A stretch of 54,319 bases of DNA from the NCBI GenBank assembly GCA_002633005.1, contig NMRA01001104.1, forward strand, positions 1 to 54,319, written 5' to 3'. This DNA comes from Phoronis australis (lineage: Eukaryota; Animalia; Phoronida). Shown here piece after piece: positions 11,813 through 51,700 of this stretch. The position numbers and the translations under genes were made by a program. The notes beneath the pieces are model-generated. The model was given only the letters and a program-made list of their open reading frames with translations. It was not told where the DNA came from and did not search any database. How positions within the stretch are numbered: the first letter of the stretch is position 1; each line of letters starts with the position of its first letter.

Positions 11813-11885
11813 TCTCCTGCCCGTTGTTTCATTATATCAGTCCTATCGTAGCTGTCTCTGTTGTTTCCAACTCCGGCTAGGACTT

Positions 11886-12159
11886 GGGGGGAAATAGAGA
11901 ATTATGACATATAGATGGCGCTTGCTATTCGCCCTAGCCGCCATGTTTCTTTTGTCTCTAAGTCCATTGTTTAATTAGCGGTAAGATTCCCTCATTTATT
12001 ATAGCCTTAGCACATCTCTAGCGTTGTTAACCTATTGTAATCACACGTCACTTGTTAGCGACCTAGTTTTTACCCCCTGTCTCTGTTCTTTCAGGTTACG
12101 ATCATTCGTAGTTTGCTGTAACCAATAAACAGTGAAGAAATACTTGCGAGTTATTTTTT
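11886..12159 (+). repeat. Polypurine tract and probable 3' LTR
   Basis: GGGGGGAAA about 75 bp after the pol stop, then an AT-rich ~265-bp segment with AATAAA at 12124-12129. Canonical TG...CA ends are not seen. Confidence 0.6.
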
Positions 12160-12556
12160 ACTACCCACGCTGTGACACGTGACCTACTGAGCCTGATTTG
12201 AAACGATAACAGTTGTTCTCAAGTTCGGATATCTTGTTTTAACTCAGTAACGGACAAGCTATATTTAGAACAGTTATTGATCTAAAACAATGTTGTTTTG
12301 CTTAGAACGAGCTTAACGCCTCACTATAAGAATACTTGAATGTTGTTAACGATTGCCATGCAATCTGTTTTTGGGGTCAGTGTAATCAACGCTGGGTATT
12401 GGAAAGCAGCGTCAACAGAAAGCTTCTTGATGTCATTTAGTCTATGGGACTGAGTCTGTGATTAAAAAAGGTTAGCATGTTAATGCAGAAAACCAGAGAA
12501 GGCCACTGAAATGACATTACTAAAATTTCCGGCTGAGGATACGTTCAGAATTTATC
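12160..12556 (+). repeat. ~398-bp direct repeat, copy 2 (right flank of Gypsy fragment)
   Basis: Matches 8113-8510. Confidence 0.95.
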
Positions 12557-20174: not shown

Positions 20175-20409
20175 CAGAGGCAGATCCACGTTTTCAGTAA
20201 GAGGGGCGGGTTTAGGATTCACGCAAATCCGAAGCGCGTAGCGTTACGCGTAGGGAAGTTCGGGAGTGATTTCTCCCCTCCCGTGTCAGATTTGTTTTGG
20301 TTTTTAGTACCAGATTTCGTTTTCCTGGTGATAGTTTTTTAAATTATTATTTTTGATGTTGTCCCGAGTGGGGGTTGAAACCCCTGAACCCCCGGTAGAT
20401 CCGCTTCTG
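20175..20409. mobile_element. MITE-like non-autonomous DNA element
   Basis: Imperfect terminal inverted repeats CAGAGGCAGATCCAC / GTAGATCCGCTTCTG (12/15 paired), with AAAAG on both sides as a possible target-site duplication. Confidence 0.5.
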
Positions 20410-23105
20410 AAAAGTTTTGGACATCTCACAATGTGCAGATTGTCTAACTGGCCAAGTGTCTACCAAACTGGTGTGTATGTAGAAATGCCATTTTTGTGCC
20501 TTTGTTTTAAGAAACTCACGGCTTTGCTAACAACTGGTTGATAACATTTGCTGACTACAAATTGGTCTTAATAGTCTTCCATAGTCCATTCAGAGGTGGT
20601 TTCGGGTTAGTGAAAGAATTGCAGATAGCTGTTGCATGAAACCAAATTTAAGTGTTTTCAGGTTGGCTTGCCACGACGTGATTACATAAGCATCGTGCTC
20701 TAAAGAGCTGCGAGTCTAACCAAACTAGCGTACACTTCTAGTTTGAGTAAAGAACAAGTTAAGGTCAAAGGTCATTTGTCAATGTGTGGGCTCAACCAAA
20801 ATTGAATTTCTTTGACAAAATGTGGATTTACACTCACGTTGAATCATTTGGCAAGTCTACCAACATAGGTGGGACTTCCGTTCCACAAAAAGGTGTCTCA
20901 AGGTTTTGCATGTTGCGGGGAATGTTTCTACAGATATTTGTGTTTTTGTTTTGAACCAGAGGTCCCGCTTTTTATATAAATTCCGATTTTAAAATCAGTT
21001 TTTCCGTTTTTTTTCTCGAATTTTGACCGTAACAAATTTTGCAAAAGGTGTTCAAAATAACATTTGTCTCTCCTTTTTCGATTTGTTACTCTAGAAAAAG
21101 GAATACATGTACCCTTACTCTGGGAAATAACAGTATTGATAACAGTGTATTCCAATATCACTTCTTTACTGTAACACACACAACGTACACGTATCGGGAT
21201 CACTAATATTTGCTTTCTTATGGTTAGGTTAATGTCTTGTTGTTGCTGCCTATTCTTTTAAACCGTTTTAAATCTACTTTAATTGCTGACCTTCTTTGGA
21301 CAAAAACTTGATAATTTGGGCAAACATATTCATGTTGCTCTAATTTAGTACAAGGATGTACACAAACATTTGAAATAATTATTTTGAACCTATGTCACCG
21401 GGTTATATGAACCCACTCTTTTAAGATTTTTGTCAGTGACCCTACAGTTTACCTTTGGATGCTCTCGTAGATTGACAATTTTATATGGCTTAAATAAAAG
21501 ACCTGAACTCGGGATGGATCATCTTCCTGAAAATGTGTACATTGGCTACTGAAGCCAAACTGCTTTAGAAATATGAACATTTGTTCACATACATTTAATA
21601 ATGTACATGTATTTACACAATGGTGGTTATTGTGTCAACGGGATGTCCCAAGTATATATCCTAATATTCAATTAACAACAAGATATCCTTAAAAACAAAT
21701 AACAAGTAGATATCCTTACAATACAAATAACATGTAGTTATCCTTACAATACAAATAACAATTAGATATCCTTATAGTACAAATAACATGTAGTTATCCT
21801 TCCAATACAAATGATNTAGTTTTTTAAATTATTATTTTTGATGTTGTCCCGAGTGGGGGTTGAAACCCCTGAACCCCCGGTAGATCCGCTTCTAAAAAGT
21901 TTTGGACATCTCACAATGTGCAGATTGTCTAACTAGCCAAGTGTCTACCAAACTGGTGTGTATGTAGAAATGCCATTTTTGTGCCTTTGTTTTAAGAAAC
22001 TCACGGCTTTGCTAACAACTGGTTGATAACATTTGCTGACTACAAATTGGTCTTCCATTGTCCATTCAGAGGTGGTTTCGGGTTAGTGAAAGAATTGCAG
22101 ATAGCTGTTACATGAAACCAAATTTAAGTGTTTTCAGGTTGGCTTGCTACGACGTGATTACATAAGCATCGTGCTCTAAAGAGCTGCGAGTCTAACCAAA
22201 CTAGCGTACACTTCTAGTTTGAGTAAAGAACAAGTTTAGGTCAAAGGTCATTTGTCAATGTGTGGGCTCAACCAAAATTGAATTTCTTTGACAAAATGTG
22301 GATTTACACTCACGTTGAATCATTTGGCAAGTCTACCAACATAGGTGTTATGCTAGAAAAAGGAATACATGTACCCTTACTCTGGGAAATAACAGTATTG
22401 ACAACAGTGTATTCCAATATCACTTCTTTACTGTAACACACACAACGTACACGTATCGGGATCACTAACTCTTGCTTTCTTATGGTTAGGTTAATGTCTT
22501 GTTGTTGCTGCCTATTCTTTTAAACCGTTTTAAATCTACTTTAATTGCTCACCTTCTTTGGACAAAAACTTGCTTAATTTGGGCAAACATATTCATGTTG
22601 CTCTAATTTAGTACAAGGATGTACACAAACATTTGAAATAAATATTTTGTACCTATGTCACCGGGATATATGAACCCACTCTTTTAAGATTTTTGTCAGT
22701 GACCCTACAGTTTACCTTTGGATGCTCTCGTAGAATGACAATTTTATATGGCTTAAATAAAAGACCTGAACTCGGGATGGATCATCTTCCTGAAAATGTG
22801 TACATTGGCTATTGAAGCCAAAATGCTTTAGAAATATGAAAATTTGTTCACATATATTTAATAATGTACATGTATTTACACAATGGTGGTTATTATGTCG
22901 ACGGGAAGTCCCAAGTATATATCCTAATATTCAATTAACAACAAGATATCCTTAAAAACAAATAATAAGTAGATATCCTTACAATACAAATAACATGTAG
23001 TTATCCTTACAATACAAATAACAAGTAGATATCCTTACAATACAAATAACAATTAGATATCCTTATAGTACAAATAACATGTAGTTATCCTTCCAATACA
23101 AATGA
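20332..23105. repeat. Tandem block duplication 20332-21814 / 21817-23105, probably uncollapsed haplotypes
   Basis: Near-identical copies, each ending at a single N (21816, 23106). Copy 2 lacks about 220 bp. Both end in a ~28-bp minisatellite (ATCCTTACAATACAAATAACATGTAGTT). Confidence 0.9.
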
Positions 23106-24411
23106 NTTCACATTTAATGAAAAAAATTAGAAGTTTCGAGTTTTTTCTCAATATTAAATTCTACAATAAAATGTGTGGAAAAAGGTGCATGTAAATATTT
23201 TTATTTACTCAATTACACTCATGCTGTTTCAAATTATACTTATAAAACACTACATTGACCAGGAATATGAACAAGATTGTATTGTATTGTAATCATGGTT
23301 CATTGTTGAAAATCAACAAGTAAAGGTAAACCAACAATGACTCTCCGTCCCTTAAATGTATGACTGCGAATTACGATTTTCTTCAACATTCTGTTTGAAC
23401 GCCCACATGATGACAATAAACTCCATATAAATAAACCTGTTACATTTCCAACATGCGCCTCCATCACCTCAGGAAAACGATAACACGTGGACATATCACG
23501 TGAACATACAATATAAGAGACACCTACGGGAACATCACCTGTTTGAGTAATTCCAAAATGTGTTTAATACGTGTTGCTGAATTGGGAAATCATTCAATAC
23601 ACGTATATTTAAAGGGGAGTGTTCCAGTATTTAAAGTCACAATTGTAAATATGGTTACGTGACGAACATTTGCAGACGTGTATATTTTCGCATCTGTACA
23701 TGTTAATGATGCGCATTTCCGCTCGTTTTAGTTGAGAATCTCATAAGCAGATATTGACGCAAGTCAGTTTAGACAAAACATGATCACTATGCTCATCCAA
23801 TACAACTCAAACTGTGTTCAAGGTTATATTGCATCACCACCCAAAGTAGCCACCACTGTGAGATACAGTTGACCTATGCATTATGGGTACCCACTCAACT
23901 GTCGCCATATGTTAAGAGGTTTCCAAGGCAACCCCGCCCACATTGGAAGTTTAGCAGTTAGAAACGCAAAGTGAAGTTACGATTTTTCAATATTTTCGTG
24001 ATTTTTTCAAGTAGCAAAACTCACATGGTGTTCTGAAAGTATGAAAGTAAGGGGAGATGTACCTTTCAATTAAGCTAAATCTTTTCTTTTCTCTGATTGT
24101 AATGACTGTACTATATTGGCAAAAATCCACTCACTCGACAAACTTACTTTGACGCAGTTACCAAATATAACGAAGATCATGAAGATATAAGAAGCAATAA
24201 AAGAATGTGCTACAGCTCTGTAAATAATGTAATTGCGAGTAAAATGCAATAATAGAAAAATGAAAACCGTTCCCAGTCAGAGCCCCGTAACTGCAGATTA
24301 AATAGTGACACATTGGGGAGCTCAAAATTCAGTGAAAGCTTTGACCAATAGCAGATGTAGCTTCTGGGTCATGCTTATTGGTGATTTTGTGACCCATAAA
24401 ATGCCCGGGTT

Positions 24412-24762
24412 TCAAAAAGGTCTTCCGTTGGGGAAAATTTCCATGCATAGTTGTTTATCACTGTCGCTTATGGAGTCGTTCATGGAGTCGTAGATGGCCT
24501 CGATGCAAATCCCTTGTTCAATCGAACGAGGGGCAATTTCAGCAATCGAAACCGTATGAAAGGGTGGAACAGCCGGAAAAATCAACGCGTGCACCACGGC
24601 CACACTGGCTTCCTGTCGCTCGTCAGGTACAAAGCCTGGACAACCGGAACTACCAGTACCAAAATTTGAACTGGTTTTGTAAAGGGCTCTGCAACTATCA
24701 TCTAACTTCGGGTAGACGTCGAAGCCAAATCTATCTTGTGACCACTGCTTTAGCTCGTCATG
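24412..24762 (-). CDS. Terminal exon of FAM111-like protease (catalytic Ser)
   Basis: Acceptor TATTTCAG, phase 0. HDELKQWSQDRFGFDVYPKLDDSCRALYKTSSNFGTGSSGCPGFVPDERQEASVAVVHAL...RSIEQGICIEAIYDSM...EIFPNGRPF*. GSSGCP and SIEQG resemble FAM111 GASGSP and IIEFG. Confidence 0.88.
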   Translation of the reverse strand, partial: HDELKQWSQDRFGFDVYPKLDDSCRALYKTSSNFGTGSSGCPGFVPDERQEASVAVVHALIFPAVPPFHTVSIAEIAPRSIEQGICIEAIYDSMNDSISDSDKQLCMEIFPNGRPF

Positions 24763-27700
24763 CTGAAATAGACAAGTTTATAAGCGTGGATGGTGCTTAA
24801 GATAAAGTTTTATAAAAAGAATACAATTGACTGGCTTGTGTGACAAGATTATTGTAGTTATATTTGAAGGAGAATCATGTCCGCTAACAGGTGTACCCTA
24901 TCGCAAGCCGTTCGGCGGAAAACGTCGCCAGTAATGACGTACGAAATTACCACCGAGACTTCCCTCGTGTTTTACGACCGTGATCGTTATACATGTATTG
25001 AAAGAGTAATTTGAGGGTGAGGTCTAAAGAAGTTGTGCTTTCGTAGTTTTACACTCGCATTTTTTGCTCCATATCTTACGCTCGTATTAGTAAGCTCGTA
25101 ATTTTACCAAGACCGGGTCGTTATATTTAGGTCATGCCAGTCAACGCCACTTAAAACTCAGTTGATACTGTTTTGTGGCGCAAATGGTTTGTTATTCAAA
25201 TGTATTGAATAAAGAATTCGCGACTTACCACCATCATTTAGAAATTCGACATCATTACACCCCCCCCCGAAAACCGTGTTGAACCTAATATGCTTTTTGT
25301 AATGCCATACACTGTGCGACTGTGTGCGTCATCTGCACGAACTGCTAGGAGTAAGAGAAAGAACATTCGCCTAAAATTTGATAGTGAGAAAACACGGTAA
25401 CACAAAAAGAAACATTATCAGACTGCCTGCTAGACGTACATTTTGCCACCTCGGTGTGTACTAAAACGGACCAAATTCAAATGCCTGTGATGATTGGGTC
25501 AGCGAGTCAAAAATATCAGCCAATCTTGGATATTTGTCAATCTTTTGCACTTACATACTTTGCAACCGAGATTTTACGAGCGTAAAATTACGGGTGTACA
25601 AAGACTGCTTCAGACCTCATGCGACCTTCAAGTCAATTTGTCATTGGATTACTTTACCAGCCAAGTTTCGGTCGTAAAACCGAGCGTAATTACTAATCAA
25701 CAACATCCGTTGTGAAACACGAGTGAAGTCTCTGTCGCAATTACTAGCCTAGTTAGGGGCGACACTTTCCAACGAGAGGCCAACCATAGTACCCACCAAT
25801 CCACTGGCAACGTGCCACAATACTTCTGGCTGGTTTACAAAAAACTGTTCCTTATATGGTCAAGCAAGTGTTAGGATCGCGCTATCACCAAACTGTTCCA
25901 TGTATAGTCATGTATATGAGTGGGTTAAGCTTGTACCACACTGTTCCTTATATGGTCATATGTGAATAAAGCATTCATCAAATTGTTCCAAATATGGTCA
26001 TGTAGATGTGTGGTTTAAGCTTGTACCGAACTGTTCGCTATATGGTCAGACTGTTCCATTTGTTTGGATTATGTTTGCATCAAACTGATTTGCAGGGAAG
26101 AGATTTCTTTATGTATGCCACAACCTTTGCAAATGAACTCGGGCATAGTAGTTCTTAGCACATTTTGGCAATAGTTTCGTGTATTTGCAGCGGTGCCTTC
26201 TTCGCTGGTTTAGTTTGTGATTCATTACATCCATAGAACAATACACTTAAACTTAACACAGTTTTCATCTTGTGCCTCACAGTTTATTTGTGCATGTGAC
26301 AGGGTCGAATAGTATTGCAAACAATATCTGATCATTCAATACCACAGGCCTACCTTTGCGCGAAAGTCGCTCGTCTCCATTTGCACAACACCACACCTGA
26401 TATCAGCAACTTTAAAATCGCCGTCAGGGTGACCAGCAAAGTGAAGTTGTGTTTCTTTGTTTATCTTCTTAAACCTTGTAAGAGGTGGCGGTAGAGAGTC
26501 CAACTTCTTGCAGCCTTCTATTGAGCGGGGAAGAGGTGCCTGTAAGTCCAACTTCAAAACAGCCACGTCCAGATCATCGTTAGAATACACTAGTGAGTCG
26601 ACACAGCAGCCGGCAACTGACTCGAGTCCAAGCCATTTTGATTTGTCGTAATAAAAGAGCACTGCACTCTTTTTGACTGAAACGAACAAGTTGACACGTG
26701 AAATTCCGAACAGTGTAACCTATTACACTGTTCATGTGTATGGAAATAAACAGTGTAACTGGTTACACTGTTTATTTCCATATACATGTAACATACACTG
26801 ACTTAGGTAAACCAGCAAACTCTATATTTGAATTCAGCGTTTAGAAATATATCTAACATCGTATATCAACACCGTTTCCAAAGGGATTTCAAGCATGAGT
26901 GTAGTCAAAAGTAGCCTTTTAATAACCCGTGCAAGTTGTACGCTAACAAAAGGTGAAAGTGCTTTTTGGAAACATGGATGCATATTATGTTGCTGAGGGC
27001 TATCTTTGAAAGAAGTGCTGTCACTAAAGAGGCCACCCTCATTTTAAATACCACAGTAAATAAATAAACAGAAAAACTACATGATAGCGACCTCCACATT
27101 TTTTTAGGCATAACAAAGACACAAAACTTGAAAAAGAACGACAAATTGAAAATTTAATCAATGAAAAGAGACATCTGAGGTCAAGTAATAAAACTAACGA
27201 AGGCCCATGGGTCTCTGGTCAGGTTGTTTGGATCTCGTGAGAGCAATGCCCCCGTCTATGTATAACCTCACACTGAAGTCGTGATCGGTTCACTAGTGCG
27301 ATTGCTACTCAAACTCAAATCAACAAAATTCCGATATAAACCATACTCTGTTATGAGAACGGACTTTATTAACACGCCTATTTGAGAGTGTGAAACGCCC
27401 ATGTATTTTAATCTTTATTTACATATTGGTTGAGATAAGACGTTCTCCATCACGGCTTTACATCTGATGATAACGCGCCTAAACAAGTAATATCCATGAA
27501 CTTGATTTGAACCAATCATGAAGTGTCATTTCTTCTAGACAAGCCTTGTCTGAGATGAGACTGACGGAAAATGGCCTCGACCAAAACTTTGTGTAAGAAC
27601 AAACAGTTAAGTAAGAGATAATTTTACCTTTTGTTCTGAAAATAACATACTGTAACATAACAGTGTGCACTTGTTCGATCTCAAGAACAGTAAATCGTAC

Positions 27701-30700
27701 TGAATTTATGTTTCTAACTATTCATTAGGTGATTTGAAGAACGTGGACAGTTTCAGGAAACAGTGACAGTGTGTTTGGGGAAAGCATTTGACCTTTCTTT
27801 GGATAATCAGAAAATTGTAGCCTTTGTTTTTACCGTCGTCAGTTTATAGCATTTTCAAACGCGAAATATTGAACTGGAAGTAATTTTGGTCTGCTAGAAA
27901 TACTCGCAGAAATAAACTCATAGAACCTTGTCAGCCATAACACTAATTCCAAGGGAAGATTGCACTGAAAATTGGCGTTCAAGGGCAATTGGCTTGCGAC
28001 ATTCTCGCCCCAAAAACTGACGGAAAAGGAGTGGGTCTAGGCTGACGGCAGTTTCTGTGCTAAATATATGTAGGAAATGCTTGCCACGCATGGCGTTCAG
28101 TAGTACTGTAGTTCCTGGAAGTTGATGTGATTAAATGAAAATAAAAAAATTGGTCTCTGCTCTTATCTACCGGGAGACGGGAGCCCCGTCATTTTCAGAG
28201 CATAACCTAAGACTTGTTTAGTTGGGAATGTTGGCACGATTACGGGTACCTCTCAGACAAGCAAATTTGCCAGTTTTTAGGAACATTAAGCTGAGTGGCA
28301 GAGCATTACATTTTTTGTCTCGTTTCTTGCACAGGTGGATTCTTGAACTAGTGATTTTAGGTATAAAAATGAGGCAAAAATTACACTATTTGGCCATTTT
28401 TGGCGTCTGATTTTTAAGGTGGACTCGACAAGACTAAGAAATGACATGGTTGACTGTTTATAGAAAAACCATTAAGTATACTTTTTCTGAGTTTTGCCTT
28501 TTTTCAGGTGTCACGATACTGTAAACAAGACCCAGCTTTATTAACCCAGACCAGTGATGACGTCAAAATCAGTTACTTGGTCTGTACAGCTGTGGTCTTT
28601 GCTGGTCCAGTTAACTCCAGCATTGCATATGCCGAGCGTAGCGCTCTGCACGTATTTAAAATGAACCAGAGAAAGGTTTCGCAGAGCGTTACTCAGCCAC
28701 TAGTACACCAATCAGGGAATAGAATGCACTCACGATCATCGCCGAGTTTTTCAGCAACGTGCCAATTGGTCATAACGTAGTCAGGGCCAACGCGGAAACC
28801 TGAACCTGTGCCGGTTTGTCCAACAATAAGAGCTACTGATGAAAAGGCTGTTGACAAAGATGTGTGGAAATGTGCCGACATCGTCTCTTTGTTCAAATCA
28901 AATGCAGGACCGAAGCTACACCGGGGCGGCAACTTTCTGGAACTTGTGACAGGAAAGTAATCTAGAAGAAAACAAATGTCAAACCATTTTCCAATATCAT
29001 CAATGATCTCTTCAGTAAACATCAACGTGATGTTTATGTCTCTGTTATATTGTGTCACAGGTGTTAGTACCTGTCAAACACGAAACAATCTACAAAGGTT
29101 GACCAGTTCGCTCACACAAGGAAACTGATATACCAAATGAGGTGGCGTGCTTTCATTTCTGAAGAAAAATCGAGGAAGTGACGAGCGGATGACATATTTG
29201 AAAATGAAGTGAAAAAGATTTGACATCAACAGAAATTCAACATATATTTGAACAAATTCCGTTTTAGTGGCAGAGAACCACTTTGAATCATGCAATTTAT
29301 TCTGTTCTTTATGTTGCACTATGCCACTTTAACAATGGACTCGTTCGATATCTGGACCAACCACGACTTATTAGAAACTGTTGTCTTCTAGATTTGTAAA
29401 CCAAATGGGGTTCTTTTGCCAAATCGTGGCACTCCTTGTGTAATGAGCACGATTAGGACTGTATTAGATGCAAAATAAAACTAAAGATGGTGGTAATTAA
29501 ACTAAGATTACAATTAGAAATGACGGTAAAATTGAGCGTTGTTTATCTGACATGTTTTAACTAAGTCACTTGGTTAGTGCGCACAGTATCAGAAATAAAA
29601 TAATGCATTAGACAAAAACTGCTTCTTAATCTATTCGGCATGACTTCGATGGGTTAACTTATCAAACCTAAACTACATGTAAAAATTGGTAGTCATCGAG
29701 TCTGTTCACACCATGTGTTATTTCACAATCGTTGATTTCAGCGAGGTGCCATCTGCAGGTACATGTTTACGAACTACAACACCATCTATTTTAACATCAT
29801 ATACATATACGGACGAATGTTCAGACCAAGAACACTGTGCCCAATTATCAGTCGTAGAACAGCTTGGGTCAATTGGTTCCATACACACTGAACTGAATTT
29901 ATGGTATCAACATCTCATTTAGTGCATTGGGTGAATAAAAATCGATAATTTATTATTTAGAAGCTTGATGGGACTAATCATTCCAATTCGTAGTTCGTTA
30001 ACAGAGAAGTTTACAATATATGATTGTGCGTAAATAGTATAAAGCCAATATTTATGACTTATATCCATACATGTATACCTGATAGCCTGATGTCAACACC
30101 CAGAATTCCCAGCTCACTCTCGTCTCGCTGTGCTCTTATGTTTATATCTACCCAACCCTCGGGTACTGTTGCCCCGGAAGACTGCAAGTAGTGCATAACA
30201 TGTCTTCCGAACTCTAAGGACGGATCAGTTGTGGGTGCGACTCTCGCTTCAGCTCCTTCAGCAGAACTCGCACGTTGGTTTTCCTGCCTTTTTTTCTTGT
30301 GATTCTATAACCGATATTAAAAAAGTGCAATACAATGCTACCATCGGCTCGGTATGTACACGCGATTAGGAAGAAGCAACGCATAAAATTTAAAAAGCAT
30401 AAAATTCGTAAAAGTTTATCCACTTAATGAATATCGGAAATAATAAGAGTATTGACAAACTAGTTAATTTGGTTGATGAAAGATTATTTAGTTGTGAACA
30501 ACATTCACGACAACCAAAATTTATCGTCAAAATGACAAACTAGAGTGTACCTCGAGGACCTCCTTTATTTTTTTAATAGTTTCGATGTTGTTAAAGAACA
30601 CGTTGGCCTCTTTTCCACAAACATCGTAAGCTGTTTCTCCTCTCTGAAAATTGACAAATGATTATAAGTATTGAATCAAAGGACACATATACAGTATCAG

Positions 30701-33700
30701 CAGGTACTCATAATGGATAATTCTGAGGATATTGTTGAACTTAAGATTCCGATTTGTTTCCATTTGCATAAGTTCAATATCATCATTTAAAGCAAGAGTC
30801 TCAGTAGTTATGTGTGTTCCTTGTATAGCAGTTATTGTCTTTGTGGTACAAGAATGCTACTCAATGTCAAGTGTTTGTTTTAATATTAATTTGGGACACT
30901 GTCTTTTTATACCTGCGTCTGGTAGTATAAACCACATGAGCTGCTGATTCGTGTACTGAGCTTAAAGAAAGACACGGTGCTCTTAACTCTTGCTGTAAGC
31001 TTTGTCATCATAGGGGCTCAACACGTTTTTGTTTCTTGTTCAAACATTGACATCTACCCAAAACTAAACTCATAACTTTACATGTAGTTTTTTTATAAAT
31101 TTCGAGGCATCCACCTGAGAAAAATTTTGAATCTAATACAAAACTTGCCGCAATGCCGCACCTTCTGGTTAAAACGTCACCTATTAGCCAGAATAAAAAA
31201 GAACGTCACAAGCCAAGCTGAAGTCCGTGAGAGACGGACGCAACCTCCCTAACTCAAGTAATTTTTATTCCATCTTTAGATTCAAAATTTTATCCGAGTC
31301 CTAAACATCCGAGGAGAACGAAAAGGTAATACTCCACTTAAGTTACTGACTTCTTTTAGCTGTGGGTTCTTCAAATTTTTAAGCAATCACATAGTAACCT
31401 GGTTACTACATCAAGTGAATAGTTTAAATTTGTTAAAAATCCCGTGTCAATAGTCGCTTAGAAGTTTACAAAAAAGTAGAAAAGGACTTTGCCAGCAACC
31501 GTGGACGCTGTTCCATTGTACCGGGACATATAATTACATATACGTGTACAACTGTAATGAGTTATGATGCCTAAAAACACTGGTTACATAAACATTGACA
31601 AACATCCAATGCAGACATTGACAGCATACATGTACCACACAATTTGACTGACACTCTTATCTTACCGTATTAACAACCGTCGCATCGACACCCGTTTTCA
31701 GAAGCAGTTCAACAACTTCTAGATGGCCACGCGAAGACGCGCTGTGCAGCGACGTGTTGCCTCCCTACAAGAAGTATTGAAATTTGTTGACAAACAAAAA
31801 ACAAGTTTGCACGATAATCAATTGCTGAATAAACAGCAAATGAAAATAGTTTAAATTTGTTAAAAATCCCGTGTCAATAGTCGCTTAGAAGTTTACAAAA
31901 AAAGCAGAAAAGGACTTTGCCAGCAACCGTGGACGCTGTTCCATTGCACCGGGACATATAATTACATATACATGTACAACTGTAATGAGTTATGATGCCT
32001 AAAAACACTGGTTACCTAACCATTGATAAACATCCAATGCAGACATTGACAGCACACATGTACATGTACCACACAATTTGACTGACACTCTTATCTTACC
32101 GTATTAACAACCGTCGCATCGACACCCGTTTTCAGAAGCAGTTCAACAACTTCTAGATGACCACGCGAACACGCGCTGTGCAGCGACGTGTTGCCTCCCT
32201 ACAAGTATTGAAATTTGTTGACAAACCAAAACAAGTTTACACGATATTCAATTGCTGAATAAACATCAAGTGCAAATGAAAATTAAATTGTCAAAAAATA
32301 AACCGAGTTCAAAATGAAACTGCTAAGACTTATTTCAGTCACATAACAAGGACATTTTGTTGCCGAACAATTTTGGGCATTTCAGAATAGAGCGATATGA
32401 CACTCTCGGTAAAGACGGACGAGAACGGAAATAGTGCATACAATACATGTAGAATTTATTTTCAAGATTCAGGGTGGTATGCCCTAATTGTTCACGCATC
32501 ACGTGGTCGTTAGTGTTTCTCCATAGCATCTGACACTCCAGCGTGTGTTGTTACTTATTTGTACACTTGATTTGTAAATTTTGCTCCTAGATTTCACTCA
32601 AGTTGTTTCAAATATGTAACCAACAGCTTTGTATGTGGCGCATGCTCTTTAGGTTGTCTAGGGCCCAAGGAAATGTCCGATTTGGCTACCGTCGTAAAAT
32701 AATATCTCAAAATAGCTGATCCGTCTCAGAAACTATTTTCATGCACTGTTCGATAACACACTGTACTGAATTGATTTTAAAAGATAACATTTTTTGCATG
32801 ACGGGCTGTCAAAAAAGATTTTCACGATTTTCATCAAATTTATACCAAAAAGTGAACAGATGTTTAGAAACAGGACCAAATTTTGAGATCTCATCTTGAA
32901 GATTTATACGAAATAAAATCTGATATCATTGTTTTGTTATCAACGTACCTTTCCTTTCAGATAAATCACGTGATGTAAATAGTGGGAGACTAGTAAAGAG
33001 GTAAAATCAATTTTTGTAGTTTACTTACAGAAAGTATAAACATTAACTCTGTTAAAATCCACACTTTTAGACACTTTTCATAATACGCAGACTACTCAAT
33101 TAGGGCCCACAAAACCATAACACACGTGTATAATGGTAAGCGAAACTGCAGCAAAGATATCATGTTGCTGGGTGGATAGTGTCAAGACACAATCACCTTT
33201 ACAACAGGATTATGTTTTACAATCACGTGGCTCGCGTTTATGTCAATGACAGGCGGTAATGCAGACCGTGCCATCGGTGTCAACACTCAGCAAATGAAGC
33301 ATCTTCATGCAAAGCGTTTTTAGATTCTTGGCGAAAGCCTATATCGCAGAATTATCTGTTGGCGATCTGATGACATTGAACCGAACATCGGCTGGCCGTC
33401 GCATGAGTGATGAACTCTTGATGTGTGGCCGATATGTTCACTAGACTCTTTAGATTGTCGTAGTGTAAGAAACGTCGGACAAGCAATGGTTTGTATCTCA
33501 AAATGTCTTAATCACATATCAGGTGATGCTGCCACTGACATTTATTCGACCACTAGAGCATACACTGTATGAGATTTGTTTACTTGGCACATTGTAATGC
33601 ACTTTATTTCTAAAGAAGAATAGTAAACGAAAATTTGTGAATAAACAAAGAAAGTTGTTGCCCAGTGCAGAGCATTGTGTGTTTTACGCATTTAGGCACT

Positions 33701-36700
33701 TGCGCCTATATCCAAAATAACTGCCATAAGGAAATTGTCCTACTCAAATGTTTCGCACAAACGCATGCATTATGCTTCTCTTATAGGCGCAGGTGGATAT
33801 CCTTTCATGTTTTGTAGGCTTTAGAATATTTCATTTTACGTATTGGCCTCAATACGCGCATATAGGGTAAAAATACATGAAACACACAGACACACTGGCT
33901 TACATGCCAAATATTCAGAATTTACAGAAGGAAATCACAAAAAATATTACTGACACCCCACAGCTATTGTCTCAGCTCTACAGCATGCTTCACTAATTTT
34001 TCTAGGTAGAAGTGTCCTAAAACATCAAAATGCTAAAATACTTAGCACTTTTTGGAATCTACGGAACTTGTTGCTTGGGGGTCTAGAAGCTCAATGTTCT
34101 GAAGATGTTTTTTAATAATTGGCAGATTTTATTCGTACATCGGAGAATTGCCGATTTTCGTGGAAGCATAAACATGCAAATCATAGAGCAACGAACCCTT
34201 CACACCGTCAATCAAATATTAAAACATACACACATTTCCAGTTCTGTACATGTTTGTTTATACAATTTTGTCCATCTTTCTGTAAGGAGCTCCTTGGCAA
34301 TTTATCCAGGTATGCGCTCAAGAATGACTTAAAATTTGCACGGAAAAGATAATGGAAATTGATGTTTTAACAGCCGAAAGTGGGGGCCTAAAATTCACAA
34401 TTTATAAGAAAAAAGATTGTGCAAGTGGCGGAGGAAGGTGGTTATACAAAGACCCGTGGCACATTTTTTAAATACATTTTACAAACAACCCATGCCAATT
34501 GACGTCGTATGGAGCTCGCAAGTTTACATCATTACAGAGAACATAAATCAAACCACGAAATTAACATACATAGTCGTGCAGTGGGATTAAAAATAAGACA
34601 CGCTGAGAGTTTTATTGCAAATTCAAGTAAACTGCAGCCCTCTGGTGAACGTTTTGTTTTTCATTTACTAAAATGCTCACACCGAAGAAATTAAAGTAGG
34701 TTGCACCATGGCCATCGATAAAATTATATGCTACCCGATCAATCTCACAGAAAAGGAAAGTGATTGAATTATACTGTAATATAGCATCTTTAATAATGAT
34801 GGAAGTGACTAAATACGAAAAGGGTTGCCATTCTATTAGTTCTTACATTTGAGACTATAAAGTGGAATGCGAATAAATATTTTAATAATAAACCATCCCC
34901 AAAACGCTATTACCGAAAGAGTTTTAAAACTTCCACATTCTCCACAGAATACACTCATTGCAAACATCATGGAAAATGTTACGTTAAAGAACTCAGTCTC
35001 ACAACTTGAAACCCCCAAACCGTTCTTCTCACTACGTTGTTGAAATTTGAACAGTTTTTTTTTTAATATTATGATTCGATTTAGTCTCAGTCGTAACATG
35101 AAATCCAGCTTAAGAAATGCGAGTCTCTTATCCTTCCTGAAGGTATGAATATTTTTGTCCATTCATTCAAGTTTTTGCGTAATTGCATTTCTATGAAAGC
35201 GCACGTCTAGCGGAAGGTTTTGACCAGAACGTTTATTCCAAAAAGTATTTGATGCGCTGCACCGAGAACTGTGTCCTGGTACCCGAAATACGATGGTACT
35301 ATGAGGGGTGAACCAAACTGTTTGATGGCTTTCAAACTGAAATGGTTACGTATTTTTTATTTCGTGATCAAGATCCACCATACCAAACATCGCGATTTAG
35401 TCTGGTCACTTTTGTCTTGACCCTCGTAGCATCAACAAAAGGTTTTGAGACAAAAATCCACATCTTGTAGTACTTGGTAATTATCAAATGGTTTTAATTA
35501 ATTAACAGAAGATGAGATTCGACACCTTCTTTGAAATGGTTTACAGGAATGGACATTTCAACGGATATTCATTCATTTTACTCAAAAGGAAACTATTTTG
35601 ATTAATCCTGATCGTAGCACACATTTTGTGTTTGGGCATTATGTATTCCACTTGCAACTGCAACACAAGCGACTTTTTTCGTGGAATATCCTCTCATAGG
35701 CCAGATGAGTGCACAGTGCTGTGCTCTGTTACTATCCTATCGAAAAGTTTGCACCGAACGGACTTGCAACAATGTGACTTAGAAAACTGATTGTTCAAAT
35801 AGTCCCTTTTTAAAGCAATCTTGACTAACAAACTTAAGTGGGGTTCCTAAATGTGCACTGACGTGATTAAAAACCTGCATAAACTTTATGGGATGAGAAA
35901 ATTAAAATCTGTGTCTGTGTTCGGCGCCTTATGGTGTGGTTGGTTTTTTAGTTAGTATGCCAATAGTATGATCACACCAGCGACTCTGGTTTCACTGCGT
36001 GTTCTGGGAAAGTACTTGCAGTGAAGAAGTGACTCTTTGTATAACTCCACGTAAAGAGGTTGTTCATTTTTAAGAGATATTTATTATGAATGAACAATTC
36101 CTCGAACTCAATATTCATTTAAAACACGTTTATTGCAACATTTACTAAGCTCGGAGTGCAGCACTCTTGAGATACCTTGTTTACGGCATTCACCTCACAA
36201 CTGCCTTCATTGACAAGCAGCTCTACGACCGCTGCCTTTCCATTGTGCGACGCCAGGTGTAATGCTGTATCTCCATTCTAAAGTGAACAAAATGAGAGAA
36301 TGCCGGTCATCCTTAAATATAGCGAAGTGGGTGTGTCAAGAGGACGTCACGTTTTATACCTTTCTGTTCCAGAACTTCACCATCAGTTGCATACTTACTG
36401 TATGAAGCGGGTGACTCAACACAGCACGACTACACTTGACATTTAAACTCAGATATAAATGAACGAGATTTCTTAAATGCTGACCTGTTTTAGTCACACG
36501 ATTGATAATATGGTTTTAAATATCACAATTTGATTCTATGTAGTACAACAGAGCCACATTCATTTAGTGAGTGCAATGGAAATACAAGTAAAGAACCACT
36601 GCTCTTTGTACAACTCAGGGTGAAGAGAAAACTGTTCTAATTACTTAATGTCGCGAGCACGTCACGTCAGGTGCAGCGGTGTGTGGCCCTCCTATGGAAA

Positions 36701-39700
36701 GCAGAAGACATTTAATTTGACATTGTTGAGAGACATTAGATTACAAAAATATCAACAAAATTTGTTACTTAATAGTTTTAATCATCACTTGTGTAAACAA
36801 CTAATTCAACCAAACAACATGTGTGTCATTAATTACCTGATCACGTACATCCACTGTAGCGCTGTGTTCCACAAGACACTTCACTGTCTGTGTATGACCA
36901 CACAGTGCTGCATAGTGCAGCGGTGTCCGGCCCCACTATGTAATATATAATGGAGATGTGTGAATGGACGATCAACGTTTAGAGCAAATTAACATACACG
37001 CGGCAAAGTGAACTTGTAAGGTGACATAAATGAAACATTACTGACCCCTCTAAAACGCTACAATACTTGTAATGATTTCAACAGGGAAATGTTAAGTTTT
37101 AGAACAAAACAACAGAGCGTGTTCAGTGTTCCCTGTCTCGTTACAGGCCGGTAACACACAGCAAGTAATTGTGCGCTGTAAAGTGTTAGACAATCAAAAT
37201 AAGGTAGAAAATAAATCTGAAACTAAATGAGGCGATCCAGATCGTCTGAAGAAAACTATTGTTTGACGAAATGTAGAATATATATAGGTAAATAAAACAG
37301 CAATAATGAATCAACTGAAATGTTCAGATGCAGCTTTGGCAGTTCTCTGTTGGAAAGCAGACGACATTTAGTTTGACATTGTTTAAGGACATTAAATTGG
37401 GAAAATATCAACAAAATTTGTTCTTCAACAGTTTTAATCATCTCTTGAGTGAACAACTAGTTCAACCAAACAACCTGTGTGTCATTAATTACCTCATCAC
37501 GGACATCCACTGTAGCGTTGTGTTCCACAAGACACTTCACTATCTGTGTACGACCACACCCTGCTGCATAGTGCAGCGGTGTCCCGCCCCCCTATGTAAT
37601 ATATAATGGAGATGTGTGAATGGACGATCAACGTTTAGAGCAAATTAACATACACGGGGGAANTGTTCGGCGCCTAATGGTGTGGTTGGTTTTTTAGTTA
37701 GTATGCCTATAGTATAATCAGACCAGCGACTCTGGTTGCACTGCGTGTTCTGGGAAGGTACTTGCAGTGAAGAAGTGACTCTTTGTATAACTCCACGTAA
37801 AGATGTTGTTCATTTTTGATGAGATATCTATTATGAATGAACAATTCCTCGAACTCAATATTCATTTAAAACACGTTTATTGCAGCATTTACTAAGCTCG
37901 GAGTACAGCACTCTTGAGATACCTTGTTTACGGCAGTCACCTCACAACTGCCTTCATTGACAAGCAGCTCTACGACCGCTGCCTTTCCACTCTGCGACGC
38001 CAGGTGTAATGCTGTATCTCCATTCTAAAGTGAACAAAATGAGAGAATGCCGGTCATCCTTAAATATAGCGAAGTGGGTGTCAAGAGGAGGTCACGTTTT
38101 ATACCTTTCTGTTCCAGAACTTCACCATCAGTTGCATACTTACTGTATGAAGCGGGTGACTCAACACAGCACGACTACACCTGACATTTAAAATCAGATA
38201 TAAATGAGCGATATTTCTAAAATGCTTACCTGTTTCAGTCACACGATTGATAATATGGTTTTAAATATCACAGTTTGATTCTATGTAGTACAACAGAGTC
38301 ACATTAATTTAGTGAGTGATATGGAAATGCAAGTAAAGAACCATTGCTCATTGTGTAACTCCGGGTGAAGAGAAAACTGTTTCTAATTACTTAATGTCGC
38401 GAGCACGTCACGTCACGTGCACGTCACTCCACGTGCTGTGGAGACAGCATTTACAAACAAAATCACAATTTGTGATTATTTAATTAAAACACGCAATAAT
38501 TAGCCTAGTCACGTATTGTGTTCATCAACCTGTGTGTCATTAATTACCTCATCACAGACGTTCACGTTGGCCCGGTGTTCGATGAGACACTGTACGACGG
38601 CTGTATGACCCTCCCGTGCTGCCAGGTGCAGCGGTGTGCGGCCCCACTATGGAAAGCAGAAGACATTTAATTTGACATTGTTGAGAGACATTAGATTACA
38701 AAAAATACCAACAAAGCTGTTACTTAATAGTTTTAATCATCTCTTGTGTAAACAACTAATTCAACCAAACAACCTGTGTGTCATTAATTACCTGAGTACG
38801 GACATCCACTGTAGCGTTGTGTTCCACAAGACACTTCACTGTCTGTGTATGACCATTCCATGCTGCACAGTGCAGCGGTGTCTGGCCCCACTATGTAATA
38901 TATAATGGAGATGTGTGAATGGACGATCAACGTTTAGAGCAAATTAACATACACGGGGGAAAGTAAACTTGTAAGGTGACATAAATGAAACATTACTGAC
39001 CCCTCTAAAACGCTACAATACTTGTAATGATTTCAACAGGGAAATGTTAAGTTTTAGAACAAAACAACAGAGCGTGTTCAGTGTTCCTTGTCTCGTTACA
39101 GGCCGGTAACACACAGCAAGTAATTGTGCGCTGTAAAGAGTTGGACAATCAAAATAACGTAGAAAATAAATCTGAAACTAAATGAGGCAATCCTGATCGT
39201 GTGAAGGAAACTATTGTTTGACGAAATGTAGAATATATATCGGTAAATAAAACAACAATAATGGATCAACTGAAATGTTCGGATGCAGCTTTGGCAGTTC
39301 TCTAACGGAAAGCAGACGACATATATTTTGACATTGTTTAAGGACATTAAATTGGGAAAATATCAACAAAATTTGTTCTTCAACGGTTTTAATCATCTCT
39401 TCTGTGAACAACAAGTTCAATCAAACAACCTGTGTGTCATTAATTACCTGAGTACGGACATCCATTGTAGCGTTGTGTTCCACAAGACACTTCACTGTCT
39501 GTGTATGACCATGCCGTGCTGCAAAGTGCAGCGGTGTCAGGCCATCCTATGTAATATATAATGGAGATGTGTGAATGGACGATCAACGTTTAGAGCAAAT
39601 TAACATACACGGGGGAAAGTGAACTTGTAAGGTGACATAAATGAAACATTACTGACCCCTCTACGACGCTACAATACTTGTAATGATTTCAACACTCAAG

Positions 39701-42700
39701 TTTTACAGGTGATTTTAAAACGTTGAAGTAAGAACAGAACATGGTGTAGACGTCGACTGTCAGAAATTACTGAGCGCCTCCATAACTTCACAGTGACCCC
39801 TCCATGTTGTGTTTATACATCGGTTTAACGGCTTCCTGTTTAATGTAAAGTTGCAATGTTGAATGGATGATTACCATTAAGAATAGAAAAATATCAACGT
39901 TAAGTCGCCAAATATATTGTTGACACGATTCAAACCTCACTGTTTCTGAAGATGCATGTACGGGGTACAGATTGAAAAATACATGTCTAAATCATGAGAA
40001 ATAAAAAGTGTATTTACACACAACATGTTTAGTTAAACTTCAGATAGTCTACAGCTTTGTAACAAAGATAACATTGTCTTAATTATAAAATCGTCTCAAG
40101 TAGTTTCTATTACCCAGTCTTGCTTGTTGATATTAGCGCCTGCTTCACACAAAACACGCGCCACCTCTGTATGTCCCTCCACTGCTGCACAGTGTAGTGC
40201 TGTGTCGCGGCCCTGCAGAAACAATGAACAAGTTATAGCAAACTTCACAATCATTAACGTCACCGTGAATCTTAATTACTCATCACGGAAACGTTGAAAT
40301 AACACAATTGTACACGCAATTACTAAATCTACTCTCTGTTTATCATGCAATATATCAGTTGTCTTGTAATAGACCATCATTTATAAAGAACAAGTTTACG
40401 TCGCTTTCGTAGTATGTTTGTTAGTGTCAGAATTAATCCTCAGAGCAAAGACATGGCATGTTCATTAAAAATATGGGCGACTGGTTGTAGCTAGAACAAT
40501 CATTGTTATTGACAATAACATGACCATGATCTTCACATTTAATAATCATTTTTAAGAAATCAATTTCATGAGAGTAAATGGTTTAATTCACTTTTCGTTT
40601 TTAGCCAGATGAACAGGACGAAATTTAATTTGCTGCAAAAATGTTGACACAAAATATGATGTAATAGACATTAATGTGAAAGTCAAATATACTCTATTTG
40701 AAAGCTGCAATTANNNNNNNNNNNNNNNNNNNNNNNNNNNNNNNNNNNNNNNNNNNNNNNNNNNNNNNNNNNNNNNNNNNNNNNNNNNNNNNNNNNNNNN
40801 NNNNNNNNNNNNNNNNNNNNNNNNNNNNNNNNNNNNNNNNNNNNNNNNNNNNNNNNNNNNNNNNNNNNNNNNNNNNNNNNNNNNNNNNNNNNNNNNNNNN
40901 NNNNNNNNNNNNNNNNNNNNNNNNNNNNNNNNNNNNNNNNNNNNNNNNNNNNNNNNNNNNNNNNNNNNNNNNNNNNNNNNNNNNNNNNNNNNNNNNNNNN
41001 NNNNNNNNNNNNNNNNNNNNNNNNNNNNNNNNNNNNNNNNNNNNNNNNNNNNNNNNNNNNNNNNNNNNNNNNNNNNNNNNNNNNNNNNNNNNNNNNNNNN
41101 NNNNNNNNNNNNNNNNNNNNNNNNNNNNNNNNNNNNNNNNNNNNNNNNNNNNNNNNNNNNNNNNNNNNNNNNNNNNNNNNNNNNNNNNNNNNNNNNNNNN
41201 NNNNNNNNNNNNNNNNNNNNNNNNNNNNNNNNNNNNNNNNNNNNNNNNNNNNNNNNNNNNNNNNNNNNNNNNNNNNNNNNNNNNNNNNNNNNNNNNNNNN
41301 NNNNNNNNNNNNNNNNNNNNNNNNNNNNNNNNNNNNNNNNNNNNNNNNNNNNNNNNNNNNNNNNNNNNNNNNNNNNNNNNNNNNNNNNNNNNNNNNNNNN
41401 NNNNNNNNNNNNNNNNNNNNNNNNNNNNNNNNNNNNNNNNNNNNNNNNNNNNNNNNNNNNNNNNNNNNNNNNNNNNNNNNNNNNNNNNNNNNNNNNNNNN
41501 NNNNNNNNNNNNNNNNNNNNNNNNNNNNNNNNNNNNNNNNNNNNNNNNNNNNNNNNNNNNNNNNNNNNNNNNNNNNNNNNNNNNNNNNNNNNNNNNNNNN
41601 NNNNNNNNNNNNNNNNNNNNNNNNNNNNNNNNNNNNNNAAACATCAAAATACGGCCGCACAACCATGACAAGAATGTTGCTAAAGTGTATTTTAAAAACA
41701 GAGTTACGTCGTTCCCGTTAACTAAGACCTATTATTGAACTCAGTCTCGACACGTTAGCATATTGCAATAGTAGTACTGTACAGACCAAAATTCTTATGA
41801 GAGCACGGGTTTTGGCCACTCGTATCAAGTCCATGTATGCAACTTGGAATTCCCAACATAAGCGTACTGAGATTTTTTATATGTAGTACACTTCTCAGCA
41901 TATACCAGGCAATTATGAAGCAACTCATGTGGGTCCGACCATAATTTTGTTGTTGCTCCGAAGACAGTTCTGGGCCATGGCAGAATACGTGATAAAACGT
42001 CACAAAAGTGCGACGTTTACAAAAATTCTGGAACGATCAACTAACCAAAGTTTGTGGTGAAAAAAATAAATTATTTTTTTAAGTAAAATGTCTTGATTGT
42101 TCAATTACATTATCTCAGATAAATTTAGTATCGCATTGCGACGCTGCTTGATCCTGTTGTTTTTGTGCACGGTCGAGGTCCCAGCAGGGGATAATAATTC
42201 GGAATAATAAAGTAACATAATGTTTGAACATGCGTCTCGTTTTTCTTATCGCAAAAGACACAAAGCGAGTAAATTAAAACCCTACGTCTATCAATCGCCA
42301 AACGGTGAACACGACTTCTCTTTCAGCAGGCAAGTTTTGAGTTGGTACATGTAGGTATTTCAACTAACATGTACATCTGTATAAACAAGCAGACGTAAAA
42401 TTGTGAGTGATTATTTTATTTCCTATTCGTAAACACCATGAAAACTTTTTACTCCTAGTGTCATCAATTGACTACGTCACTGATTTTTAAAACTCGCTTG
42501 GAAAAAGTACTGTTCCAATTGAAACGTCAGCTAAAGACAATTAGAAGAGATGTTGCGGGTGGCTAAAATACATGTATTGTGGTTGTTAAGAATGCATAGC
42601 ACAGAAACATGGTACTGCATCATTTCTTGCTTTTAACGTCTTTTGATTTCTTTAAACGGCGATGATTCGTAACAACGACCAAACTAAAATTTGCGCCTAC

Positions 42701-48700: not shown

Positions 48701-51700
48701 TGTTTCAAGAATGCTACATTCTGATTGGTCAGTAGCCGTCACTCAAAACCCTGGGGATAAGTCAATTGCGTCGCTAGGTCAGTTACTTCATCTATGTTCC
48801 GTTGAATGCAGAATTTTATTCCCAACATATGAACGAAGCGGACTAAAGACTGTCAATAACAAAAAAGTGTCGTGTGTTCCAACATGCAGAATCGATTAAA
48901 CATTCATGTAAAAAGTGATTGCTCCGACTATAAAACAAATAAATAATTACACCAATATAAAGATATGCCTCTACTGATCATTGATTTATTCAACAAAATT
49001 CTACTGACAGGAGCCTACCCTTCTATTTGAAACTGCGATTATGGTACCCAATTAGAAAAGAATTCAGAATCACTGCAGTCTTTCTTTAAAAGTGAATAAA
49101 ATGTACAAGAACCTCATTTTCAATAACTTAAAATAAGTAACAAATTTCACTTTGGTTTTATGAGTGAAAGAGTACTACATCTCACCTGTACAAAGTTGTT
49201 CATGAGATACGACAACAATATGAAAAATGGGTTTAATGTTGGATAATTAATCCGCATTTGACAAGGTTTCACAAGATCTCTTCTTGTACAAAGCTGTCTC
49301 TTATCGAATATCGCACTCTCTGCATACCTGACATGTAAATGTATCTATCTAATCGGGTAGTAGACCACTTGTAGGTGAAGTATTTTCTAAACCAGGGTTT
49401 TGTTTATGAAGGGGTACGGAAAACTGGTCTCCCTTTTATTCTCTACATCAATTACAGACTTCCAAAAGCACCCATGACATAGTCAGTGATAGAGCCAAAT
49501 TTTATCCAAATCTCGAAACCATCCCAAGAACCAACAACAACTGAATCTAGGTTAGGCTCAGGACACGTAAGAGGCACACACATGTAAACTTCAAGATTGA
49601 GATAAAGTGTTCGTCTGGGGCACATCCCTCGCAAGAGCAGCAAAACTTCTGCGTTCTTTTTGAATCGCGGCGTAAGTTTGAAGTGTATACGGACATAACG
49701 GTGAGGCTCGTGGTCCGTTACAAATTCAGGCTGTCGGATCTTTCAATTGATAAATTGGAGACGTTAGAACTGTAGGTAAGGGCATTTTTCGCATGTAGTT
49801 CATGGGCTGGGCGCTTACTTTAGCAAAGTCTGAAAACGCGTTGGGGCACTTGTTGAGCCATGGGCGCTAATTAGGGCGAATAGCGGCAGAATTACATACA
49901 GCAGCGTAGTTTAATGCACACAAATTACACGTCGTGCAAACCAGTCGGCCATCCCGTTTACCATCAACAATCCCAGTAGCCTTTGCGCACCCTAATTTCC
50001 GGACATGCGCAATCGTTAAATCGATTCGGTTGCAACTCCGCTATTGTACACTGGCCTACATTATTCGTATTTGAGTCTGGAAGGTGAAATTGTTACCCCA
50101 AAAACACTGGTAAAGACATCTAACCATAATAGAAGATGATGAAATGTCATTTAAACCACACTGACCAGTCCGTGCTCAAAAACAATTCAAATCAACTTAC
50201 TGAAAATTGTACAGTGTATCGCATCTTTAATGCAAGTTTTAAATCGTCTGATACATGTAAGTACATACGATTGAAACGTTTTGACTACGGTGATATACTG
50301 CACCAAGTACATATAGATTGTGCGGGAACTTTTGCCTGAGCTGGACAGACTATATTATCAAGCTTGCAATAATTATTACTGGTGTCATGGAAGGGTCGAA
50401 TATAGTTAAAATCTTAAGTCGTTCAAAATGCAACTGTAATGAAAGTTGCATTTAGGTAATAACACCTCAAGTTCTCAACAAAGTAAATGACATAAGCAAA
50501 ACAAAATTCGAATACCACTCGATCTGGGTAGAGTTCAATAACGCTAGGAACTCGCCAGGCCATTCGCGAGATTACGGCGTGTATTTTAAAAGAGAACACG
50601 TGAGTTTGGATAGTTTTTCGAAGCCCGAGACAGCTACCGATCTCTACCGGGGTCTCTTTCAGCATGCCTTCCTTAGTTCCGCCATCTTACAGTCGAGTCA
50701 CTCGTAAATCCACAATAACCAAAGCATAGATATATGTCACACCCTCCCAATATACACACGGAATTTAGAAATTATATATCATTATTAAATTCATTTTATA
50801 CAATACTTTTTCTTAAAGAATAAAGTCTTTCTTCCTATAGTCCTATACCGCCGCACAATAACAAAGGAAATATGTCAACAGATTCAGGTCAAGATTATTG
50901 TTGAACTCTAAAAAAGTCGGACCGACTTTTCAAAAACTGTCTCTCCGGTGCAACTGTGGTCTGCCCAAATCGGCCAGTCTCTAATTGTTTGCACTATCAT
51001 CGATCGTTTTCGGGATCCTTCTGGCGGACCCTGGAGACAGTCGACGATATTGCAGGAAAAATTAATAGCATTCCATGGAAAATTTATTTTTTGATCACTG
51101 ATTCTCATGACTATCCCAATAGCGTCTACAAAGTGCTTCTTAATAAAGTTGCCAGCATTTCCATACTAAACTGTCTTTATACGATAACTTGATTATATTT
51201 TTTCTCACCGACATACTACCGTAAATCAAGAAAGACATCTGCCATATTTACAACTTTTGCAGCTAAATGTGAATATTTTGTTATTACTGTTGTAATGTTA
51301 CTACGATGTTCACCTGTTGCTTTGGTTAACAGTATAGAGTGTTGATATAGAAATATTCAACAGAAAACCAGGAAAGCAATGCCATCCTGATGAAACGTGC
51401 AACAATGGTCGTTTCTTTAAAAAGGTGCACTTCAATCCAATGATGATCATACGAGCGTTTATGTGTGAATACTCACCCACGGATTAAGTTCTTGGTCCAC
51501 ATCCCACCCACGTTTTATATATTTCACAAGTTTAGAACAATTGCCATTGCTTGCAGCTGCTTCAACCTGAAAATAATAACAAAAAAAGATTTTAAATCAC
51601 ATAGTCTACATTCACTACCAGCATGGAATCATCCTTACAAGCAGAGAGCTTTCAAAGATGATATGAACAGTCCGGGAGGGCTTGGGTTGTTCATGGATCT

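Follow-up and report, generated by a model that had tools for sequence, protein, structure and literature searches.

Known receptors that shuffle repeats and present hypervariable binding faces come from fungi and brown algae, where most of them are coupled to an NTPase switch. In the available parts of two reports on Ectocarpus (PMC3341825, PMC11378527), the LRR-ROCO and NB-ARC-TPR candidate receptors carry one repeat per symmetric exon and show exon duplication, inactivated exons and positive selection at the binding face. Fungal NOD-like receptors (NLRs) with high internal conservation (HIC) in their WD40, ANK or TPR repeats are, according to the accessible text of PMC13449251, built of near-identical repeats with few hypervariable positions, exchanged by unequal crossing-over or conversion. 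As for proteases, trypsin-like effectors occur in bacterial conflict systems (PMC8195603, in the sections available). The excerpts at hand on FAM111A describe an antiviral protein that needs dimerisation (PMC9798293, PMC10920703, PMC10469034) and has a His385, Asp439, Ser541 triad with a spacing of 54/102; the FAM111 ubiquitin-like domains are absent in soft coral and lancelet examples (PMC9798293). Here we describe a gene on the minus strand of contig NMRA01001104.1 of the phoronid Phoronis australis (assembly GCA_002633005.1), the whole 54,319 nucleotides of which make up the window analysed. We think it rather probable that the gene is expressed and belongs to a multi-copy family, and that an exon-per-repeat ankyrin array, variable mainly at its binding face, and a predicted trypsin-fold protease would together form an intracellular sensor-effector for a fast-changing foreign protein.

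A six-frame scan, together with a profile made from the exons themselves, revealed ten minus-strand ankyrin repeats. As the initial annotation had proposed, each repeat is its own symmetric exon, of 99 bp in eight cases and 102 bp in two, and all ten have AG/GT ends and are in phase 0-0; AG..GT ends flank a 99-nt stretch by chance at 184 of 51572 places. The Pfam cut-off for Ank was passed by all six of the ankyrin exons scanned. In the direction of transcription the exons are E1 (40114..40212), with flanks that are multi-copy in DNA contigs; the sister-class exons E2 (39448..39546) and E3 (38792..38890), 656 bp apart, both covered by the Pfam scan and the comparison of sister exons; E4 (38548..38646), an older relative of the sister class, and E5 (37923..38024, 102 bp), both likewise scanned; E6 (37493..37591), E7 (36837..36935) and E8 (36176..36277, 102 bp), second copies with intact splice sites; E9 (32100..32198), which differs from E10 by 2 nt and has weak read support; and E10 (31666..31764), the last full repeat. 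The array is preceded by an N-terminal capping-type ankyrin exon with AG/GT ends and an open frame, E0 (51477..51566, 90 bp, phase 0-0), and followed by a C-terminal capping-type exon, E11 (30551..30643, 93 bp, phase 0-0), and a linker exon, E12 (30079..30304, phase 0-1), both of which are defined by RNA joints and splice ends; scanned singly, E12 gave no Pfam match. The array does lie where it had been placed (31418..40212), but the gene itself reaches further, at least from 51566 down to 24412, and includes protease exons that had been overlooked. The true first exon with its start codon was not found, and no pick was possible among the candidates. More exons, the start exon among them, could lie hidden in assembly gaps at 40714-41638 and 53507-54163, within or beside the gene.

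Part of the array is present twice, as copies of 1.75-1.95 kb that are 94-95% alike (35918-37662 and 37664-39617). Between these copies the introns differ at 60 of 1420 bases (4.2%), and the exon pairs E2/E6 and E3/E7 together at 24 of 198 bases, about 22 of these differences being non-synonymous and 2 synonymous. The differences were sorted by repeat position in two ways. Set A comprises positions 2, 3, 5, 13, 14 and 33, which we take to be the binding-face positions of designed ankyrin repeat proteins (DARPins), with the register verified in an alignment to a solved DARPin (PDB 6mol); set B comprises positions 2, 3, 5, 10, 13 and 33, as given in the accessible portion of PMC4308713. With either set, 8 of the 12 binding-face residues are changed, compared with 8 of the 54 remaining ones (Fisher p = 6.5e-4). 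At the level of bases, set A binding-face codons differ at 13/36 (p = 4e-9 against introns) and the framework at 11/162 (p = 0.16); for set B the figures are 11/36 (p = 4e-7) and 13/162 (p = 0.045). Silent sites, 2 of about 48 of which differ, are in line with the 4.2% intron rate, and only 5 of the 24 changes are of the CpG type. Residue-changing differences are therefore in excess at binding-face codons, the signature of diversifying selection. In E5/E8, three codons differ, all non-synonymously, two of them at positions 13-14. E2, E3, E6 and E7 are 86-92% identical over their first 72 nt, with three to four residues among the four exons at each of positions 3, 5 and 13. The likeness to Ectocarpus drawn by the initial annotation is apt, and is reinforced by this diversification, which it had overlooked.

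The sister cassettes also carry a hint of conversion. The 40 intron bases upstream of the exon are identical in all four sisters, and sites that divide the sisters two by two group by copy in the exons (3/4) and do not in the downstream intron (0/15; p = 0.004, or 0.02 with adjacent sites counted once), a discordance that rests on two or three sites. E4 is 71-74% alike to the sisters over its first 72 nt and has the 22 intron bases after the donor in common with them. A 30-nt tract that crosses the donor is the same in E4 and E6, while the exons are 71% alike and the remaining introns are unrelated. This tract corresponds to the donor-adjacent intronic motif that had been noticed in five exons, and indeed the 21-nt motif occurs in exactly five copies, directly after the donors of E2, E3, E4, E6 and E7. 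It represents a tract of conversion or else an element under selection. The motif (38527-38547 and at the four sister donors) makes up the first 21-22 intron bases, and in-frame read-through would add a short common peptide with a stop after 8-12 residues.

Expression was followed in four RNA runs over 24300-40713, three raw-read runs of one study and one contig run of another, for which 15 of 141 joints were listed. In the raw-read runs exon depth lies almost wholly on one strand, which fits a minus-strand gene. The joints E4-E5, E5-E10, E10-E11 (30643), E11-E12 (30304), E12-E13 (28961), E13-E14 (26676) and E14-E15 (24762) each occur in all four runs; in run X8 the E5-E10 joint (31763/37922) is carried by 131 reads and the E4-E5 joint by 196. 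One sister exon is spliced to the next, and on to E4 and E5. The joins E0-E1, E1-E2 and E2-E3 are suggested by similar joints and by loose ends, those past E1 in the RNA matching the 3' end of E0 by eye, with differences. Since the consensus of these loose ends varies between runs, with an agreement of only 0.63-0.84, the hairpin at the E0-E1 junction appears to be variable. The path through E0-E5 and E10-E15 encodes 635 residues with one terminal stop. In sequence, the majority of RNA reads are 90-99% alike to the window; the E12-E13 junction exists in three versions in the contig run. Some reads and contigs diverge from E11 (30551-30615) and from the start of E13 (28925-28961), pointing to paralogues with another cap and linker. 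Finally, the intron after E1 has exon-like depth on the sense strand, and in two of the three raw-read runs 3' ends pile up at 37848, where a minor transcript end lies shortly downstream of E5, 33 bases past an AATAAA near 37881; ankyrin-only transcripts are therefore likely.

Downstream of the linker, E13 (28734..28961), E14 (26354..26676) and the last coding exon E15 (24412..24762, ending in the stop and placed by RNA joints) probably encode a protease of the trypsin fold, as predicted from sequence. Putative catalytic residues His403 (in TNWHV, E13), Asp448 (in DLDVAVL, E14) and Ser558 (E15) follow in order within the 635-residue frame, at a spacing (45/110) typical of trypsin-fold proteases; the E15 motif GSSGCP we take to be the catalytic Ser motif. 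'FAM111-like' is likewise a presumptive label, and a sequence match to FAM111 was not obtained. Scanned singly, E13 aligns with positions 1-20 of Trypsin_2 (E = 0.005) and E14 with positions 45-103 (E = 0.27), so that consecutive exons match the profile in order, at scores of 18 and 12.4 bits, below the cut-off of 27.6. E13 also matches MarP (E = 7e-4) and PDB entry 3k6z (E = 0.007), the atlas neighbours of E14 are trypsin families, and E15 falls into an atlas trypsin cluster (0.91, low recognition). Searches of the PDB gave no hits for E14 and one irrelevant hit for E15, and a FAM111 chain was absent among the hits at E up to 10 for all three protease exons. Structure models of single exons reached a predicted local distance difference test (pLDDT) score of 42 and 34, too low for use. 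An Ntox25 Pfam match in E13 (21.8 bits, cut-off 25) was taken as chance.

Six of the eight read differences listed in the protease exons are silent when taken singly (40 of 1662 rows listed). Just past the Asp motif, at 26516-26545 in E14, read differences are clustered, with compensating one-base indels, and 147 of 171 X8 reads differ at 26523; this stretch may be a variable protease loop. A short inverted repeat (26709-26793) lies just upstream of the E14 acceptor.

Family size was judged from four DNA runs, all of one sample, in which contig depth is not true copy number; 15 of their 49 joints were listed. The long intron is represented by an exact contig and a deeper variant, at about 3-7 depth units, and sites near E1 by 9-56 depth units, with 7-11 contigs at variant sites. 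Indeed, the E1 bin stands at 3.9-5.5 times the long-intron median in all four runs, which points to many more cassettes of the E1-E4 type than protease-linked segments. A DNA joint at 38420/38744 (8-12 depth units, all four runs) connects intron sequence downstream of an E3-type exon, through a stretch of unknown letters, with the intron that precedes E5, and suggests a common arrangement unlike the E4 region of the window. The best explanation is that the gene is an expressed member of a multi-copy family.

The ten exons had been read as one array, which probably does not describe any single chromosome. The two copies of the duplicate meet at a single N (37663): one ends on the base before it, the other begins on the base after it, and both do so in mid-repeat. 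The other duplicate of more than 1 kb in the window (20332-23105; 1.3-1.5 kb, 96-97% alike) bears the same signature, its second copy lying between single Ns at 21816 and 23106, and so beginning right after an N, at 21817. RNA passes from E5 to E10 in all four runs, and the 15 joints listed of 141 include neither E5-E6 nor E9-E10. We consider it likely that the assembler stacked two haplotypes or paralogues at the N, although none of the 15 DNA joints listed of 49 lies across or around it. The copy below it (35918..37662, minus strand; E6, E7, a remnant of E4 at ~36690-36669, and E8) is thus the probable other haplotype or paralogue, and a single allele probably holds five or six full repeats (E1-E5 and E10) rather than ten.

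Alternatively, all ten exons could be truly tandem on one chromosome, with block skipping or mutually exclusive splicing deciding which of them enter a transcript. Intact splice sites in E6-E8 would suit this, as would the joints E6-E4, E7-E4, E3-E7 and E6-E3, all of which occur in RNA, and the summed DNA depth of E5 and E8 exceeds the single long-intron median (1.1-2.9 times, four of four runs), which counts against an artefact of stacking. However, E6-E4 runs backwards on the assembly, which is impossible by splicing and possible from a different allele. Together with the position of the N, the duplicate elsewhere in the window and the E5-E10 joint, this makes a true tandem array unlikely, although it is the best of the alternatives. 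Out-of-order joints among E2, E3, E6, E7 and E4 were accordingly rejected as alternative splicing, as such joints arise when reads of other alleles or paralogues are assigned to wherever they match best.

The duplications seen by the initial annotation have to be read differently. Its spacings are all present (656 bp twice, 427-434 bp and 244 bp), but the two 656-bp periods are one event seen twice inside the larger duplicate. That event, the duplication that gave E2 and E3, is real, since both copies have it and there is clear divergence in the introns downstream. A recent cassette duplication does not explain the 244-bp spacing, as E4 matches the sisters in the exon and 22 intron bases only. 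The pair behind the 427-434-bp period, E9 and E10, is weakly supported by reads: their DNA depths add up to 0.67-0.90 times the single-intron median in all four runs, and the E10 letter is found in 14/14, 11/11 and 40/57 of the reads assigned to E9. This duplication is therefore private to one haplotype, or an error. In the lower copy, whichever reading of the N holds, most of E4 has been deleted, ~200 bp between short matching sequences, so that repeat number differs without a frameshift. Exons can thus be lost in frame, as had been anticipated. Of the two routes to a repertoire that had been suggested, germline change is supported, as duplication, deletion and probable conversion, and numerous sequence variants occur in RNA as well as in DNA; splicing, be it combinatorial or mutually exclusive, is not shown by the joints, which fit alleles or paralogues. 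A high-copy interspersed repeat (39151..39285), recognised by depth and loose ends, lies in the E2-E3 intron near the cassette junction and has a twin from ~37197; its bin depth is 87372 in X1 against ~200 in the long intron, with loose ends at 39151/39285 and 37197.

These results suggest a model whereby the ankyrin array would bind a fast-changing foreign (pathogen) protein, and the protease would be switched on after target binding, by clustering or by release of inhibition. New specificities would come from the germline, through cassette duplication, microhomology deletion and conversion, with phase 0-0 exons keeping the frame, and ankyrin-only transcripts might serve as decoys or extra sensors. 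We infer that the protease is active and that its ligand is a pathogen protein. More tentatively, and with somewhat less than even confidence, we suggest an undescribed animal family of natural DARPin-like receptors, in which a reservoir of ankyrin cassettes, always recombining and diversifying at their binding residues, would be wired without any nucleotide-binding switch to a serine protease inside the cell, and would also yield early-polyadenylated ankyrin-only transcripts. No description of an ankyrin-array/protease architecture, or of such an array in an animal, was found in the open-access literature, supplements aside.

Several points weigh against the sensor-effector reading. The test of selection draws on two exon pairs that are not fully independent and may have exchanged sequence, and the comparison of non-synonymous with synonymous changes alone is weaker (p = 0.038). 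E15 matches no Pfam family, and all the protease matches fall under the curated cut-offs. Word-based searches found no homologue among 65 (E15), 25 (E13) and 94 (E14) candidates, which is weak evidence, and there was none either among the 595 and 554 pattern matches of two scans of metagenomes. Since function is a prediction and homologues were not found, the term 'immune' would express an evolutionary signature and an analogy. The DNA depths come, as noted above, from a single sample, and the depth of E5 and E8 argues against stacking.

Among explanations that differ in function, the array and protease could form a diversifying sensor for recognition of self and non-self (individuals, gametes or selfish elements) rather than of pathogens. 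The same sequence signature is seen here as in the fungal receptors with near-identical hypervariable repeats that act in allorecognition; yet the available text of that report (PMC13449251) argues for a general immune role of such genes, and a self/non-self role is without direct evidence. We regard this as improbable, somewhat more so than a true tandem array. An ordinary ankyrin scaffold, with unconstrained surface positions and duplications that are neutral accidents tolerated by symmetric exons, is less probable again. In its favour, natural ankyrin repeats as a whole vary most at just these positions (PMC4308713, accessible portion), and the statistics are carried by only two exon pairs. 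However, binding-face codons differ about eight times faster than the flanking introns, whereas silent sites equal the intron rate, and relaxed constraint cannot exceed the neutral rate. Somatic cassette rearrangement into a per-cell repertoire is very improbable indeed: it would suit the 7-11 contigs around E1 in one DNA sample and the identical tract across the donor of otherwise diverged exons, but the variants can be put down to paralogues, neither a recombinase nor a signal was identified, and somatic recombinants are unreported for the algal genes in the available text of PMC11378527.

Elsewhere in the window, a retroelement on the plus strand (8113-12556) has RVT_1 and rve matches, broken by stops and frame changes, and is flanked by 399-bp direct repeats that are 96% alike (8113-8510 and 12160-12556) and lack TG..CA ends. 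We take it to be of the Ty3/gypsy type. The end of the contig (54164-54319) is a 13-bp tandem repeat of 12 copies with 99% matches.

How, then, does the locus compare with the systems set out above? With the Ectocarpus receptors, as far as the sections available describe them, it shares symmetric repeat exons (ten of ten here), recent duplication, an inactivated exon, selection at the binding face and domain fusion. In contrast, those receptors join LRR or TPR repeats to a GTPase or NB-ARC domain, whereas here ankyrin repeats are joined to a predicted protease. Multiple splice combinations are reported for Ectocarpus in the same sections, while the phoronid evidence consists of short reads from other individuals and 15 listed of 141 joints. 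The fungal HIC NLRs are alike in having repeats that are 80-100% identical with few hypervariable positions, and an effector domain on the same chain; they differ, on the text available, in their NACHT or NB-ARC domain, none of which is present in the 635 residues here, and in that each repeat here has its own introns and one class is near-identical. No ROC-COR, NB-ARC or NACHT domain came up when E0, six of the ankyrin exons and E11-E15 were scanned with Pfam (the first exon lying outside the scan), and the gene is therefore neither an Ectocarpus-type receptor nor a fungal HIC NLR.

FAM111A and FAM111B, judged from the same excerpts as above, share the C-terminal Trypsin_2-type domain predicted here, with similar triad spacing (54/102 in FAM111A, against 45/110 here), and the dimerisation that FAM111A needs offers a model for the effector step; they carry two N-terminal ubiquitin-like domains where this protein has an ankyrin N-terminal half. 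Dscam-type mutually exclusive arrays are unlike this one, in which sister exons are spliced in succession, then to E4 and E5. A practical lesson is that stacked haplotypes inflate apparent cassette arrays, and RNA and DNA runs are at hand for measuring the repertoire. The closest parallel to the variation itself is with DARPins, which, in the accessible parts of PMC8229355 and PMC4308713 and in PDB 6mol, likewise combine a fixed framework with variation in the beta-turn and first helix; there the variation belongs to artificial libraries, whereas here it is natural and encoded in exons. If our reading is correct, positions that are randomised in DARPins would here be coupled straight to a protease, a compact and testable model of intracellular recognition diversity in animals that have no antibodies.

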